A DNA stretch of 24,000 bases from an uncultured Methanosarcinales archaeon (GTDB lineage Archaea; Nanobdellota; Nanobdellia; Woesearchaeales; ARS49), in contig CAYHVU010000001.1 in assembly GCA_964360075.1 (NCBI GenBank), forward strand, positions 19,504 through 43,503, read 5' to 3'. Under the pieces are notes generated by a model. That model saw nothing but the letters and a program-made list of their open reading frames with translations, was not told the DNA's origin and made no database searches. Shown one piece after another: positions 9,687 to 14,847 of this stretch (the stretch's first letter is position 1; each line of letters opens with the position of its first letter). A program made the position numbers and the translations under genes.

Positions 9687-11048
9687 TTAAATCAAGCGCA
9701 AACGCTGGCCAGGCCTGAGCACGTGTGCGTTTTTCGGCACCATGCCGCTCTCGGTCCAGAGCTGCAAGAAACTGTTCACTTTGTTCGGTTCGCTGTGCGT
9801 CGGAATCGCGTGCTTTGGTCGTGTGAGCTTGAGGAATTCCCTGATATCCTCGCGCGCTGCGTGGCCTGAGACGTGGATGTCAGTGTAGAGCCGCACACCT
9901 TGGTTTTGCAGCTCGCGGTCGATTGTTTTTCTATAGGTAATATTGGGCTCGACTGGAATGACGCTTGATGAAAAGATGACGTGATCTTGACTGTTAAAAG
10001 TGAATGGTAGTTTGCCGAATGTCATGCGCGCGAGCATGCTCTTTGGCTCGCCCTGATTGCCAGTAACGACAAGCAGAAACTTGTCTTTGCCGCGCGCCAT
10101 GATTTCCTTGAACTTGCGCTTCACCTGACCGCCATACTTCACAATTTCGACGCCAGATTTTGAAAAGTTGACGAGATCAATATCCTCGGCTGCCTGCACA
10201 TACTTCGAGAGGCTTCTTCCCAAAAATACTATTTTTCTTTTGGTTTGTTTGCCGAATTCAATAATGCTTTTCAGGCGTGCAATGTGGCTGCTATATGTCG
10301 TAATGACTATCGCTTTTCCGCGGTTGTCTACGCCAAGCATTGCGTCACGTAGCATTTCGCGCGCAACAACTTCCGAAGGCATCTTCCCGGATCTGTTGAC
10401 GTAAAGTGTGTCGCAGATGGTGAGCAACACCCCCTTGTCGCCGAGCCTTTTCAGACATTCATAGTGCGGCGGTTTGCCGAGAATCGGATTATTGTCGAAC
10501 TTGAAATCAGTAGCATACAGAATGATGCCGTACTTCGTGTGCAGCGCAATCATGACGCTTTGCGGAATGCTATGCGTGACGTGCACGAATTCTACCGTCA
10601 CGTGCGGTGTTATTTTCATGATGCCATTCGGGTTCAATGGCGTGAGCTTGTTGCGGAGCTGAATCTTTTCATCCCTGAGCACGATTTTCAGCAGCGAAAT
10701 GCTGTACGGACTCGCAATGATTGGACAATCGTAATTGCCCGCTAGAAATGGAACGGCGCCGATATGGTCCAAGTGCGCATGACCGACAAAGATTGCTTTG
10801 ACGTTTTTGCGCCATGGCTTAATGCTGTTGTCATCAGGGATAGCACCTGCTTTGCGCAACGCCTCGACGTTCAGCTTGCTCAAGTCACCAGAATCATCTT
10901 CAGTAAATTTGATGTAGTTAGGCATGTGCAGGCCGATGTCAAAGATGAAGACTTCATCGTCCACTCTAACCGCAGTCATGTTCTTGCCGACTTCTCCTGT
11001 GCCGCCAACTGGCACGACTTCAACACCTGGTGGAAATTGCTGTTTCAT
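9687..11048 (-). CDS. rnj: archaeal RNase J (beta-CASP metallo-beta-lactamase ribonuclease)
   Basis: 453 aa. N-terminal VVPVGGTGEVGKNMTAV, the MBL motif VGHAHLDHIGAVPF, and beta-CASP-like later motifs (HVSGHA near the C-terminus). Confidence 0.85.
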   Translation of the reverse strand: MKQQFPPGVEVVPVGGTGEVGKNMTAVRVDDEVFIFDIGLHMPNYIKFTEDDSGDLSKLNVEALRKAGAIPDDNSIKPWRKNVKAIFVGHAHLDHIGAVPFLAGNYDCPIIASPYSISLLKIVLRDEKIQLRNKLTPLNPNGIMKITPHVTVEFVHVTHSIPQSVMIALHTKYGIILYATDFKFDNNPILGKPPHYECLKRLGDKGVLLTICDTLYVNRSGKMPSEVVAREMLRDAMLGVDNRGKAIVITTYSSHIARLKSIIEFGKQTKRKIVFLGRSLSKYVQAAEDIDLVNFSKSGVEIVKYGGQVKRKFKEIMARGKDKFLLVVTGNQGEPKSMLARMTFGKLPFTFNSQDHVIFSSSVIPVEPNITYRKTIDRELQNQGVRLYTDIHVSGHAAREDIREFLKLTRPKHAIPTHSEPNKVNSFLQLWTESGMVPKNAHVLRPGQRLRLI

Positions 11049-11050
11049 GA

Positions 11051-11133
11051 TGCGGGGAGCAGGATTCGAACCTGCGAAGGCCTAAGCCATTCGCTCTTGA
11101 GGCGAACTCGTTTGACCGCTTCGATATCCCCGC
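11051..11133 (-). tRNA. tRNA-Leu (anticodon CAA), class II with long variable arm, no encoded CCA
   Basis: Hand-folded minus strand: GCGGGGA TA TCG AAGCGGTCAAA CGA G TTCGC CTCAAGA GCGAA TGGCTTAGGCCTTC GCAGG TTCGAAT CCTGC TCCCCGC A. All four stems pair and the T-loop TTCGAAT is canonical. Confidence 0.9.
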
Positions 11134-11137
11134 GTAG

Positions 11138-11179
11138 CGCGGGGGTGTCCGCAGAACGTTTTCTGCGCGCATCCCCGCG
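11138..11179 (-). other. structured 5' leader of tRNA-Leu: acceptor/T-arm-like minihelix repeating the tRNA 5' end
   Basis: The minus strand reads C GCGGGGAT GCGC GCAGAA AACG TTCTGC GGACA CCCCCGC G, then CTAC, then the tRNA. GCGGGGAT (11178-11171) equals the first 8 nt of the tRNA. CGCGGGG pairs with CCCCGCG (7 bp) and encloses a 6-bp hairpin. Confidence 0.5.
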
Positions 11180-11206
11180 AGGATACGGACGTCGGCTGAA
11201 AGGCGC

Positions 11207-11220
11207 TTTTAAATGTTACG
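11207..11220 (-). promoter_or_regulatory. BRE/TATA-like element CGTAACATTTAAAA (minus strand) upstream of the tRNA-Leu leader
   Basis: The TATA edge is ~29 nt from the leader GCGGGGAT at 11178. The 11-mer CGTAACATTTA recurs exactly at 12948-12958, upstream of another minus-strand operon. Confidence 0.4.
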
Positions 11221-11230
11221 CAGGGTCGAT

Positions 11231-11375
11231 TTGCGGGATTGAAAATCCCGCGAGTCTTTTTCGCCTCCAGATGCAAGCAGAATCCAGTAGGTTCTGCTGC
11301 ACCAAGAGAACGAAGTTCTCTGGTGCCAGAGGACTCTGTCCTCTTGGCACAACAGAACGGAACGTTCTGTTTGTG
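11231..11375. repeat. array of five consecutive, sequence-related stem-loops (candidate structured ncRNA or palindromic repeat cluster)
   Basis: H2 11233-11251: GCGGGATT GAA AATCCCGC. H3 11276-11298: AGCAGAA..TTCTGCT. H4 11299-11326: GCACCAAGAGAAC GAA GTTCTCTGGTGC. H5 11325-11348: GCCAGAGGAC TCT GTCCTCTTGGC. H6 11348-11375: CACAACAGAACG GAA CGTTCTGTTTGTG. Only mutually overlapping ORFs of palindromic origin cover this stretch. Confidence 0.5.
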
Positions 11376-11422
11376 GCGGGTCATCTGAAAGAATGCCATC
11401 AAGCTCCTTTTGGGACCAGGGA

Positions 11423-13504: not shown

Positions 13505-13903
13505 TCATTCAATTAAGATTTCAAGCGCAGGAACCAAGAGTTTGCATTCTTGCACGAGAATGCGACGGTGACATTTTTCAGGTGTAAACTCATAACAAGT
13601 CAGGGTGACATTCTCTTTGAGCGCACGCATGCTCCAATGGACTAGCTCCTCTCGCAATTCAGGTTTTGCGAGATGGGTTCGGTAGATATCCATCAAATCC
13701 TCAAATGTGAGCCGCCCACGATAGTACTGCCCAACAGATTTTTCTGGTGGCGAAAGACAACGTACCCAATAATCAATCCCCGCTCCTTTTGCGAGTTCGC
13801 GTTCAGGATTAAGCCAAGTTTCATCAGTTAGCCGGCTCATCGTACAAACGCGAATACCATCCTCAGGTCTACGTTCACGAAAGACACAAGCAGTTTTTAG
13901 CAT
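13505..13903 (-). CDS. DUF488 (YeaO-like) family protein
   Basis: The N-terminal RERRPEDGIRV...RL and the C-terminal VTLTCYEFTPEKCHRRILVQ match the DUF488 pattern (LLCxE..p..CHR) as I recall it. The ATG lies 2 nt after the tRNA-Gly discriminator base. Confidence 0.6.
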   Translation of the reverse strand: MLKTACVFRERRPEDGIRVCTMSRLTDETWLNPERELAKGAGIDYWVRCLSPPEKSVGQYYRGRLTFEDLMDIYRTHLAKPELREELVHWSMRALKENVTLTCYEFTPEKCHRRILVQECKLLVPALEILIE

Positions 13904-13905
13904 AA

Positions 13906-13993
13906 TGCACCTGCCGGGAATCGGACCCGGATTCCAAGCTTTTTCCGACGTTTTTCGTGGGAAGCTCGTATCTTACCATTAGACGACAAGTGC
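13906..13993 (-). tRNA. tRNA-Gly (anticodon CCC) with a 17-nt intron at the canonical 37/38 position
   Basis: Hand-folded minus strand: GCACTTG TC GTCT AATGGTA AGAT A CGAGC TTCCCA [CGAAAAACGTCGGAAAA] A GCTTG GAAT CCGGG TCCGATT CCCGG CAGGTGC A. The intron spans 13941-13957. TTCC pairs with intron GGAA as the central 4-bp helix, flanked by 3-nt bulges CA|C and AA|A (BHB-like; the outer intron helix is weak). Confidence 0.8.
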
Positions 13994-14722
13994 TTTATTC
14001 GGGTTGTTCGGACGCACCCAGTCTAAGAATCTTGTGGTATTTTTTCCGTGGAGTGTGAGTGTGTAGATATCTGCCTTTCCTATTTTTTCCCATTTGTCCA
14101 TAAATGGGTTTAAATGACAAGACTGATGAATAATCATTAACGCATTATGCGCCAATCTGGGAGAAACGGTTGAAAAAGATATGCGCCGTTTAGGAGCATA
14201 GTAACTTCCATCAGTGTCTATAAGTCCTCGTAAAAACCCCAAGTTAAACTCATGATTATTTTTATCGAGTTTAACTAATCGGACCGTGTACGTTTTCTTA
14301 CCTTCCCAAATTAAATATTTTGCAATAAGTTCGCGAATGGTTTTTGAATAATATGTGAACGTGTAACAAGATGGCTTTCCTTTGTACAGCGTATGATAAA
14401 TTCGCGGTTTTTTCCCGAACCAACGTGTTAAAGTTTCCTCGAGATAGCGACGATATCCAGTTTCATATGCTCCCGCATATATCTGGATAATGTGTTGATA
14501 GTTTTTGGAACAATGATAATGTCCATCTCCGGCAAATATACCTAAAAACTCCCCGAGTTCATTATTGTTCTCAAAATGAAACGAAATTGGTTTGTTCTTT
14601 TTCCCATTGATTTTTTTGTAATGATAATAAATAGTTGATTTGCCAATATTGAGACGTTTGGAGATTTTATTGATTGATTGACCTTGATGAAGCAAATCAA
14701 TAATTTGATTCTTGTGTTTCAC
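13979..14722 (-). CDS. double-motif LAGLIDADG homing endonuclease with N-terminal helix-turn-helix
   Basis: Two LAGLIDADG motifs (LGEFLGIFAGDGHY and LGFLRGLIDTDGSY). N-terminal HTH QSINKISKRLNIGKSTIYYHYKK. GTG start at 14722; no in-frame ATG lies upstream before the stop at 14747-14749. The last five codons plus the stop (GCA CTT GTC GTC TAA) are the first 15 nt of tRNA-Gly. Confidence 0.85.
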   Translation of the reverse strand: MKHKNQIIDLLHQGQSINKISKRLNIGKSTIYYHYKKINGKKNKPISFHFENNNELGEFLGIFAGDGHYHCSKNYQHIIQIYAGAYETGYRRYLEETLTRWFGKKPRIYHTLYKGKPSCYTFTYYSKTIRELIAKYLIWEGKKTYTVRLVKLDKNNHEFNLGFLRGLIDTDGSYYAPKRRISFSTVSPRLAHNALMIIHQSCHLNPFMDKWEKIGKADIYTLTLHGKNTTRFLDWVRPNNPNKALVV

Positions 14723-14761
14723 AAACTTTGAAAACTGTTCAGATATTTAAACGTAATCATT
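13994..14761 (-). mobile_element. AT-rich homing-endonuclease cassette (free-standing, no intron or intein context visible)
   Basis: Hand counts of 60-nt lines give 30% GC (14221-14280) and 38% GC (14521-14580) inside the cassette, against 55% (13621-13680) in the neighbouring gene. The cassette is bounded by tRNA-derived sequence on both sides. Confidence 0.55.
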
Positions 14762-14811
14762 ATGAGCCGGGTTCAGTTATGCGGAAGATCCTACCATTGA
14801 ACGAGCAGTGC
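14762..14811 (-). pseudogene. tRNA-derived fragment (acceptor 5' strand plus D-arm, then scrambled remainder)
   Basis: The minus strand GCACTGC TC GTTC AATGGTA GGAT C TTCCGCA TAACTGAACCCGGCTCAT matches 19 of the first 25 nt of the intact tRNA-Gly 5' half (GCACTTGTCGTCTAATGGTAAGATA). A CTTCCGCA resembles the Gly anticodon loop CTTCCCA. No anticodon stem, complete T-arm or matching 3' acceptor could be folded. Confidence 0.4.
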
Positions 14812-14837
14812 GCTAGTCAATAGCCCCCCAAAAAAAG

Positions 14838-14847
14838 TATAAAAAAG
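14838..14847 (-). promoter_or_regulatory. TATA-like CTTTTTTATA (minus) ~27 nt upstream of the tRNA-like fragment; the T-runs may also terminate the PRC-barrel gene
   Basis: After the PRC-barrel stop (14849-14851) the minus strand reads TAATCTTTTTTATACTTTTTTTGGGGGG. The spacing to the fragment 5' end at 14811 is promoter-like. Oligo-T runs are archaeal terminator signals. Confidence 0.35.

Follow-up and report, generated by a model that had tools for sequence, protein, structure and literature searches.

Protein genes that begin two nucleotides after tRNA genes in an archaeal contig, and their possible expression through tRNA 3' processing

INTRODUCTION

How can a protein gene be expressed when its start codon lies only 2 nucleotides (nt) behind a transfer RNA (tRNA) gene? 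The question is raised by a 24,000-nt stretch of DNA from an uncultured archaeon (contig CAYHVU010000001.1 of assembly GCA_964360075.1, positions 19,504 to 43,503 of the forward strand), referred to below as the window, in which a gene of the DUF488-N3a family follows tRNA-Gly(CCC), and a gene for an RNase J-like beta-CASP ribonuclease follows tRNA-Leu(CAA), with this same spacing. In the tRNA punctuation model of Ojala, Montoya and Attardi, mitochondrial messenger RNAs (mRNAs) receive their ends through the cuts that RNase P and RNase Z make at the tRNAs of a polycistronic precursor, and they have practically no 5' leader (PMC3790967). A first-pass annotation of the window, made from its letters alone, had suggested that the DUF488 gene is likewise co-transcribed with its tRNA, and that RNase Z cleavage after the discriminator base leaves an effectively leaderless mRNA.

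We describe herein the anatomy of both junctions, the start codons, the missing promoter- and terminator-like signals, and the conservation of this layout in relatives. We consider it reasonably probable that the DUF488 and RNase J genes are expressed from tRNA precursors by way of tRNase Z cleavage, which would give near-leaderless mRNAs; the steps at the RNA level are what we infer from this layout.

RESULTS

Anatomy of the two junctions

The first junction is made up of the following features.

13906 to 13993, minus strand: tRNA-Gly(CCC) with a 17-nt intron, discriminator A13906, CCA not encoded (Rfam RF00005, ARAGORN intron mode)
13941 to 13957, minus strand: archaeal bulge-helix-bulge (BHB) intron CGAAAAACGTCGGAAAA, 17 nt, site 37/38 (BHB drawn by hand)
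13904 to 13905, minus strand: spacer TT, 2 nt, between discriminator and start codon (read from the sequence)
13505 to 13903, minus strand: DUF488-N3a gene, 132 amino acids (aa), without a promoter of its own (Pfam PF22751, homologue alignment)

Along the minus strand, the discriminator A13906 is followed by TT at 13905-13904 and by an ATG at 13903-13901, which is the first start codon after an in-frame stop. All the coordinates of this junction and its 132-aa open reading frame (ORF) were as first annotated. The same geometry, which had also been pointed out in advance, is found at tRNA-Leu, where A11051 is followed by TC and the ATG at 11048.

11206 to 11213, minus strand: TATA-like box TTTAAAAG, 76.5 nt 5' of tRNA-Leu (matrix score 11.4; the same box in locus L002)
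11051 to 11133, minus strand: tRNA-Leu(CAA), discriminator A11051 (ARAGORN; Rfam, 58.1 bits)
11049 to 11050, minus strand: spacer TC, 2 nt (read from the sequence)
9687 to 11048, minus strand: RNase J-like beta-CASP ribonuclease gene, 453 aa, without a promoter of its own (Pfam RNase_J_b_CASP, 77.9 bits)

ATG 11048 is likewise the first start after an in-frame stop, and no alternative start precedes the conserved VEVVPVGG strand of the protein.

The start codon of the DUF488 gene

The predicted DUF488 protein matches PF22751 (DUF488-N3a) with 40.9 bits (cut-off 27), residues 3-117 being aligned with profile positions 2-111. It keeps the family motifs, including CHRR (in CHRRILVQECK), and passes the "active" Pfam model. 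A search with the single protein retrieved only itself, and an alignment of three orthologues was needed to reach the family. In the resulting alignment of 39 members, 34 start at the column of residue 1, 31 of them with "ML". Residues 1-21 are conserved at 0.68, versus 0.63 for the remainder, and include the features ML.T.C and EDG.RV. The next Met, residue 22, is a conserved internal residue of a VMSRHT motif in 37 of the 39 members. The earlier view that the start does not lie further downstream is upheld by these data; homologues that begin at the internal Met, which would have told against it, are not what the alignment contains.

One public gene call, P0001, nonetheless has 111 aa and begins at Met22, as against 132 aa in the call of another assembly. 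Because 34 of the 39 homologues start at residue 1 and Met22 is internal, P0001 is a truncated call, probably made since the gene caller avoids a start 2 nt after a tRNA. Comparable truncations may hide other junctions between tRNAs and coding sequences in the annotations of metagenome-assembled genomes (MAGs).

An intron-containing tRNA-Gly

The window contains only two tRNA genes, tRNA-Gly and tRNA-Leu. ARAGORN with default settings, and Rfam in its default or gathering mode, found only tRNA-Leu(CAA) there and missed tRNA-Gly. With permissive filters, RF00005 matched 13906-13993 (minus strand) over its full length (model positions 1-71; 45.9 bits, gathering score 29), the anticodon loop carrying an insertion. 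Removal of the intron at the canonical site 37/38 leaves a tRNA of 71 nt, which ARAGORN reads as Gly(CCC), and a 7-nt anticodon loop, UUCCCAA, identical to that of intron-less tRNA-Gly(CCC) orthologues. In its intron mode, ARAGORN called the gene Phe(AAA) because it set the 17-nt intron at 32/33; this reading was rejected, since splicing at 37/38 yields the orthologous Gly(CCC) loop. In the BHB, the outer helix h is the anticodon stem, the central helix H (4 base pairs) joins U32U33C34C35 with GGAA, the 3-nt bulges are CA/C and AA/A, and h' has 2 base pairs. This canonical fold is stable, at -5.2 kcal/mol; the minimum-free-energy structure is another fold, of -10.6 kcal/mol. A homologous intron of 18 nt occupies the same site in tRNA-Gly of a related locus, L005 (3085-3173; comparison loci are numbered with an L). 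The tRNA-Gly(CCC) of L010 (8950-9074, minus strand) has an intron of about 54 nt, and BHB introns at 37/38 occur in some alleles of the clade only.

The cloverleaf is well preserved. All 21 stem pairs are intact and standard in the window copy. Among seven orthologues, 99.3% of the cells are paired and compensatory changes occur in 15 of the 21 pairs, versus about 40% paired in slid-partner controls; two compensatory acceptor-stem changes among retained pairs separate the window gene from that of L002. This pattern indicates that tRNA-Gly is under structural selection, by which it is kept a substrate of tRNA-processing enzymes. Gene callers truncate the protein at such a junction (111 versus 132 aa) and default tRNA finders miss or misname the intron-bearing tRNA; junctions of this kind would therefore be under-reported in MAGs.

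Promoter and terminator signals

Promoters were sought with a TATA-like matrix derived from the boxes of window genes, scored over positions -40 to -17 and expressed as percentiles of a background. In many window genes, the start codon is preceded by a TTTAAATA-like box whose centre lies about 26 nt upstream, the geometry of archaeal leaderless genes; in a few, the box is at a greater distance and is accompanied by GGAGG. Leaderless mRNAs appear to be common among the genes of this organism.

No TATA-like box was found at -40 to -17 of the DUF488 gene (best score -2.1, 48th background percentile) or of the RNase J gene (-4.6, 22nd percentile), nor in this region of the tRNA-abutting genes of the window, L002, L003, L005 and L007, where the percentiles range from 9 to 75. 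On the contrary, boxes at the 96th-99th percentile, centred at -24 to -26, precede the stand-alone DUF488 genes of L013 and L018 and the RNase J gene of L010, which has a 65-nt spacer. Neither a Shine-Dalgarno sequence nor room for one exists 5' of the DUF488 or RNase J gene, so that the statement of the first-pass annotation that a promoter and a Shine-Dalgarno sequence have no place at the junction applies to both genes. No T5 run occurs from tRNA-Gly to 60 nt beyond the DUF488 stop codon. The DUF488 gene thus lacks the TATA box about 26 nt before the AUG that marks canonical archaeal leaderless transcripts, and if its mRNA is leaderless, it would seem to be so through processing, not initiation.

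Where could transcription begin? The tRNA-Gly genes of L002 and L003 have a TATA-like box 27-31 nt on their 5' side and the DUF488 gene 1 nt on their 3' side; therefore one promoter could serve both tRNA and DUF488. At the second junction, the TTTAAAAG box is the presumed promoter of a tRNA-Leu/RNase J unit.

Conservation of the junctions in relatives

The gene content of the window is typically archaeal (PCNA, a Hef-like helicase-nuclease, primase, ScpB and the RNase J-like beta-CASP enzyme), and its closest genomes, as judged by RNase J, are MAGs that bear the labels Candidatus Woesearchaeota or Nanoarchaeia. The source of the window is an ultra-small archaeon of groundwater; an identical contig of 1.4 kb comes from Hainich well H51 (0.1-um fraction). 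L001 does not differ from the window and carries no independent information. The clade has a conserved gene order: TraB, PRC-barrel, a variable slot with tRNA-Gly, a convergent gene, TPR, B-box, a 158-aa gene, tRNA-Leu and RNase J.

The two genomes closest to the window are those of L002 and L003, whose RNase J proteins are 94% and 84% identical to that of the window. In both, the spacer between tRNA-Gly and DUF488 is a single nucleotide, T, as compared with 2 nt in the window, and in L002 the spacer between tRNA-Leu and RNase J is 4 nt. The suggestion that the geometry is not a one-off is therefore borne out, and the abutments are not a matter of chance, since both of the two window tRNAs abut a coding sequence and the junctions recur in relatives (Gly/DUF488 in L002 and L003, Leu/RNase J in L002). 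The 1- or 2-nt junction is kept despite a mutual identity of only 36-51% among the three DUF488 proteins. Altogether, six junctions of at most 4 nt occur among the tRNAs of all loci examined, and they belong to three junction types only.

The two genes differ in their histories. RNase J is a core gene of conserved synteny. tRNA-Leu precedes it in the window and in seven relatives, eight genomes in all, and the spacers measure 2, 4, 18, 26, 65, 98, 108 and 246 nt; in four genomes, it seems to depend on the tRNA, the spacer being 26 nt or less and a box being absent. Because the spacers of the relatives measure 4-246 nt, the 2-nt spacing is a recent contraction, with no fixed design. DUF488 is present in the variable slot in three of seven genomes. 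The gene is accessory and diverges fast, and its slot, at an insertion-attracting tRNA, is variable. The DUF488 proteins of L002 and the window are 36% identical, versus 81-98% for the flanking genes, which suggests that the L002 gene is either fast-evolving or exchanged. More distant DUF488 genes (L013, L016, L018, L019 and L022-L024) are stand-alone or, in L022, lie 2 nt after PCNA. Because none of them stands behind a tRNA, a general linkage of DUF488 to tRNAs was rejected.

A LAGLIDADG gene and a broken tRNA upstream of tRNA-Gly

The region 5' of tRNA-Gly bears on how the first junction could be transcribed. It contains, from 5' to 3' along the minus strand:

14837 to 14847, minus strand: native tRNA-Gly promoter-like box CTTTTTTATAC, now before the orphan fragment (matrix score 7.4)
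14788 to 14811, minus strand: orphan 5' fragment of the native tRNA-Gly, positions 1-24 (24/24 identical to tRNA-Gly of L002)
14744 to 14751, minus strand: TATA-like box TTTAAATA, its centre 25.5 nt 5' of the GTG of the LAGLIDADG gene (matrix score 10.0)
13979 to 14722, minus strand: helix-turn-helix (HTH) and LAGLIDADG endonuclease-like gene, 247 aa (Pfam LAGLIDADG_3, HTH_7)

The encoded protein matches LAGLIDADG_3 (PF14528) over residues 158-232 (37.5 bits versus a cut-off of 22.5) and carries an N-terminal HTH_7 domain (30.4 bits). The last 15 nt of the ORF, including its stop codon, are positions 1-15 of tRNA-Gly. The same overlap of a LAGLIDADG ORF into tRNA-Gly is found in L007 (2818-3555; 57% identity over the full length), where a box at -31.5 of tRNA-Gly lies inside the ORF, and in L009 (about 10540-11400, minus strand; 29% protein identity).

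The orphan fragment is followed, after a short gap, by CTTCC, which is part of the anticodon region, and the CTTTTTTATAC box is placed, with respect to the tRNA, as it is in L002. The acceptor strand of the fragment, GCACTGC, cannot pair with the 3' strand, CAGGTGC, of the intact copy; the intact tRNA-Gly therefore would have arrived with the LAGLIDADG gene, displacing the native one. It seems that the native tRNA-Gly was broken and replaced by an incoming copy, and the LAGLIDADG gene may be that of a free-standing homing endonuclease moving together with a replacement tRNA gene. In the literature, the coverage of which was incomplete and gives weak evidence on this point, no description was found of such a fusion between a free-standing LAGLIDADG gene and a tRNA gene. 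The intron of the intact tRNA-Gly cuts the anticodon-loop region, which is also where the orphan fragment ends. The intron might be a shield of this allele against the neighbouring predicted endonuclease.

The intact tRNA-Gly has no proximal promoter because the LAGLIDADG gene was inserted upstream. The TTTAAATA box at 14744-14751 is the strongest box 5' of this tRNA and also the nearest strong one, 754 nt upstream. Because the intact tRNA-Gly is without a nearby promoter, the window unit may comprise the endonuclease, the tRNA and DUF488, with this box as its candidate promoter.

DISCUSSION

Expression from tRNA precursors

According to the mechanism proposed here, the DUF488 and RNase J genes would be transcribed as the 3' part of tRNA precursors, having no promoter of their own. 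At tRNA-Gly, the LAGLIDADG insertion would have parted the intact tRNA from its native promoter, and the window transcript would probably start at the LAGLIDADG promoter (14751-14744), comprising the endonuclease mRNA, the tRNA and the DUF488 mRNA. tRNase Z would cut after the discriminators A13906 of tRNA-Gly and A11051 of tRNA-Leu. The upstream product would become the tRNA, spliced (tRNA-Gly) at its BHB intron and provided with CCA, and the downstream product an mRNA that begins with a 5'-monophosphate and has only 2 nt before its AUG (UUAUG... or UCAUG...), tRNase Z being an enzyme that leaves a 5'-phosphate on the trailer. Such a processed mRNA could then be translated like the leaderless mRNAs of this organism.

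The co-transcript cut by RNase Z that was first envisaged for DUF488 is partly supported: it withstood each check made on it at the level of sequence, and it fits the lack of a box and of a T5 terminator between tRNA-Gly and DUF488 and the conserved geometry. The picture needs to be amended in that tRNA-Gly has no proximal promoter, the 2-nt spacing at tRNA-Leu is recent, and DUF488 is an accessory gene whose slot varies; three features had not been mentioned at all, namely the intron of the tRNA, the LAGLIDADG ORF overlapping the tRNA and the orphan tRNA fragment.

Several points weigh against the proposed mechanism. Co-transcription, tRNase Z cleavage and translation of the product are inferred. 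The TATA matrix is circular for the window genes and independent for L010, L013 and L018. Within 117 nt of the intact tRNA-Gly of the window, no TATA-like box reaches a score of 3, and the transcription of this tRNA is unexplained unless it is carried on the LAGLIDADG transcript; an RNase P cut of such a joint transcript would remove the stop codon of the LAGLIDADG gene. The window tRNA-Gly scores 45.9 bits, versus 53-62 bits in its orthologues (7-16 bits less). Position 55 of its T-loop (13923-13917, minus strand) is C in place of the near-universal U, which all six orthologues have, so that the conserved U54-U55-C56 reads T-C-C in the window gene versus T-T-C in the orthologues. DUF488 is absent from L004, L005 and L007, and the L002 gene (2855-3280) has lost CHRR, with an "inactive" Pfam subclade as its best match; the constraint on DUF488, and hence on its expression, may be weak. 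In Sulfolobus, aIF2-gamma shields 5'-triphosphate ends from 5'-3' decay (PMC3792030), a protection that a 5'-monophosphate mRNA would be without; tRNA-processed mRNAs may therefore be short-lived. For RNase J, a short life of its own mRNA hints, as a speculation, at feedback.

A broader scheme can be drawn, in which tRNA genes would be shared expression platforms in a genome-reduced DPANN lineage, each offering its promoter and tRNase Z site to promoterless genes downstream, whose mRNAs would be processed and leaderless-like. Cassettes such as DUF488 or a 181-aa ORF of L009 would insert exactly at the discriminator, the LAGLIDADG gene would bring a replacement tRNA-Gly, and the intron may interrupt the target of the enzyme. 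RNase J would regulate itself, an idea suggested because its mRNA would carry a 5'-monophosphate and therefore be a substrate of 5'-3' decay. Taken as a whole, we regard this scheme as doubtful.

Alternative explanations

The abutment could instead be a scar of mobile DNA, with DUF488 as promoterless cargo that came to, or with, tRNA-Gly, is poorly expressed or silent, and leaves the junction as a mark of the insertion site. Integrative elements, such as those of the SSV type in archaea, target tRNA genes and duplicate part of the tRNA. Related loci resemble this situation. In L009 (4755-5470), the 181-aa ORF, which has no Pfam match, starts 2 nt after the discriminator of tRNA-Leu and is followed by a 12-nt repeat of the tRNA-Leu 3' end. 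In L004 (1780-1971, minus strand), a 112-nt scar that ends in a 12-nt tRNA-end repeat comes after tRNA-Gly, and so it does in L012 (440-624, minus strand), the one contig found by a metagenome scan with the tRNA-Gly(CCC) pattern, which has the same layout as L004. In the window, a 5' tRNA repeat, the orphan fragment, flanks the LAGLIDADG gene. The slot between the PRC-barrel and convergent genes is variable and holds DUF488 in three of seven genomes only, the DUF488 proteins are far less alike than the products of flanking genes, and that of L002 has lost its CHRR motif. Insertion at tRNAs, tRNA duplication and foreign genes beside tRNAs are thus shared with integrative elements, as seen in L009, L004 and the orphan fragment. 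On the other hand, no integrase gene was seen near the tRNA 3'-end insertions of L009, L004 and L012 or at the window locus, and the duplicated part in the window is the 5' part of the tRNA and is linked to LAGLIDADG. No tRNA 3'-end (att-type) repeat flanks DUF488 in the window, L002 or L003, or RNase J; the flanking tRNA repeat that characterizes tRNA-targeting elements is present in L009 and in L004/L012, and not at DUF488. Moreover, the DUF488 ORF is intact in three genomes, the window copy keeps its motifs and the "active" model, and RNase J, a core syntenic gene and no cargo, shares the geometry. A scar of this kind is an unlikely answer to our question, and it explains the origin of the junction rather than its expression; it is therefore compatible with expression from tRNA precursors.

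A second alternative places an unconventional promoter inside each tRNA gene, from which a primary leaderless transcript would arise with its 5' end on the ATG or close to it. Promoters of archaea are sometimes weak or divergent, our matrix recognizes TTTAAATA-like boxes only, and primary leaderless transcripts appear to be common in this genome. However, the -40 to -17 region is occupied by the G+C-rich T-arm and acceptor stem, ranks at the 9th-48th percentile in the three genomes with the Gly/DUF488 junction, and is constrained in sequence by the tRNA structure, whereas canonical boxes are present at the stand-alone homologues. We consider such promoters to be distinctly improbable.

It is more improbable still that the tRNA stays uncut as a structured 5' leader with a stabilizing or regulatory role for the mRNA, translation being initiated internally at the AUG. 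There are precedents: in Nanoarchaeum equitans, half of a tRNA-His defines the 5' untranslated region of the mRNA for valyl-tRNA synthetase (PMC3491384), and a tRNA-Lys lies in a 159-nt leader in Thermococcus kodakarensis (PMC4247193). Against this, no Shine-Dalgarno sequence is present, and with a stable acceptor helix of 7 bp only 2 nt away, the AUG is poorly placed for internal initiation. Since CCA is not encoded, the 3' trailer has to be removed for the tRNA to function, and covariation indicates that it does function.

Finally, a true DUF488 start at Met22, with a 65-nt leader and the abutment as an artefact of ORF calling, agrees with the 111-aa call P0001 and is scarcely credible in view of the conserved residues 1-21, the 34 of 39 homologues that begin at residue 1, the internal position of Met22 in 37 of 39, the Pfam alignment from residue 3 and the 132-aa call of another assembly, and a promoter would still be missing.

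Relation to known systems

Expression from tRNA precursors would resemble mitochondrial punctuation in that a tRNA directly abuts protein genes, with 2 nt at both window junctions and 1, 1 and 4 nt in relatives, and in that the would-be mRNAs are nearly without a 5' leader. It differs in being local, with two tRNAs in 24 kb of a cellular archaeal chromosome and TATA-type promoter regions of their own, in that only the 3' side of the tRNA abuts a coding sequence and ordinary promoters coexist, and in being known here from sequence alone. One of the two nearest archaeal precedents, the other being that of T. kodakarensis, comes from N. equitans, also a DPANN archaeon, where the RNase Z cut of a precursor of tRNA-Val and the C/D box small RNA sRNA8 makes the 5' end of the sRNA (PMC3491384). 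There, too, a promoterless gene lies directly 3' of a tRNA; the downstream product is a small guide RNA and is backed by RNA sequencing, whereas the window product must be translated.

In T. kodakarensis, tRNA-Lys lies inside the 159-nt 5' leader of the TK0306 mRNA, so that a single mapped primary transcript covers both an archaeal tRNA and a protein gene; the tRNA is within a longer leader, and the accessible part of that report does not describe a direct abutment to the start codon or a leaderless product (PMC4247193). tRNA-like structures, or t-elements, define mRNA ends in plant mitochondria (PMC1920247), and t-elements in Haloferax show that flanking RNAs can be set free by the RNase P and tRNase Z of archaea (PMC4946936). 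These enzymes act on the tRNA shape and thereby set the ends of neighbouring RNAs. The t-elements are non-functional mimics or engineered, whereas the window contains a complete tRNA gene with strong covariation.

We found no report of a natural archaeal abutment of tRNA and coding sequence that yields a leaderless mRNA, in a literature coverage that was incomplete and is weak evidence. The layout is real and conserved and the proposal testable; mechanistically, the proposal is a modest extension of known tRNA punctuation, and the mobile LAGLIDADG-tRNA cassette adds interest to the locus. If true, it would provide a natural example from the archaea of a translatable leaderless mRNA that is created by the 3' processing of a tRNA and not by transcription initiation, and both the punctuation principle and the tRNA-sRNA precedent of N. 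equitans would be extended to protein genes on free DPANN chromosomes. Three questions would be affected: the promoter economy of ultra-small archaea, how leaderless translation handles 5'-monophosphate ends, and the coupling of gene expression to tRNA maturation.

Other observations

The T-loop of the window tRNA-Gly is TCCGATT, and that of the six orthologues TTCGATT or TTCAATT. The base 3' of the discriminator is T in all archaeal tRNA-Gly and tRNA-Leu genes examined (window and L002-L012); since two orthologous tRNA families were sampled, this may reflect shared ancestry rather than a processing signal. An ARAGORN call of a "tRNA-Arg with 716-nt intron" in L003 was discarded as a false positive, the stretch being covered by called protein genes.

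The labels of four comparison loci conflict with their content. L003, L004 and L009 are labelled Methanosarcinales and L006 a Binatia bacterium; by gene order and RNase J (53-84% identical), all four group with Woesearchaeota- or Nanoarchaeia-like relatives. These labels look wrong, or else the contigs mis-binned.

Upstream of tRNA-Leu, one further feature was found.

11134 to 11190, minus strand: structured 5' leader of tRNA-Leu with a stable hairpin (-27.9 kcal/mol, z = -3.95)

None of 200 shuffles folds as well as this hairpin, which is kept in L002 (5860-5913). An Rfam search gave no family for the leader, and microRNA and CRISPR-repeat matches at about 11134-11358 were dismissed as far below gathering scores and reflecting hairpin shape only. 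With the box about 76 nt upstream of tRNA-Leu, a 50-nt leader is left, which holds an 8-nt copy of the tRNA 5' end (GCGGGGAT, 11178-11171). The structured leader is absent in L004-L007, where the box lies 30-36 nt upstream. Between the 158-aa gene and the tRNA-Leu promoter, the region of about 11215-11420 (minus strand) is some 150 nt longer than in L002 and contains several long hairpins (e.g. 11291-11358), with Rfam matches at chance level only. It could be a small inserted element or an as yet undescribed RNA.

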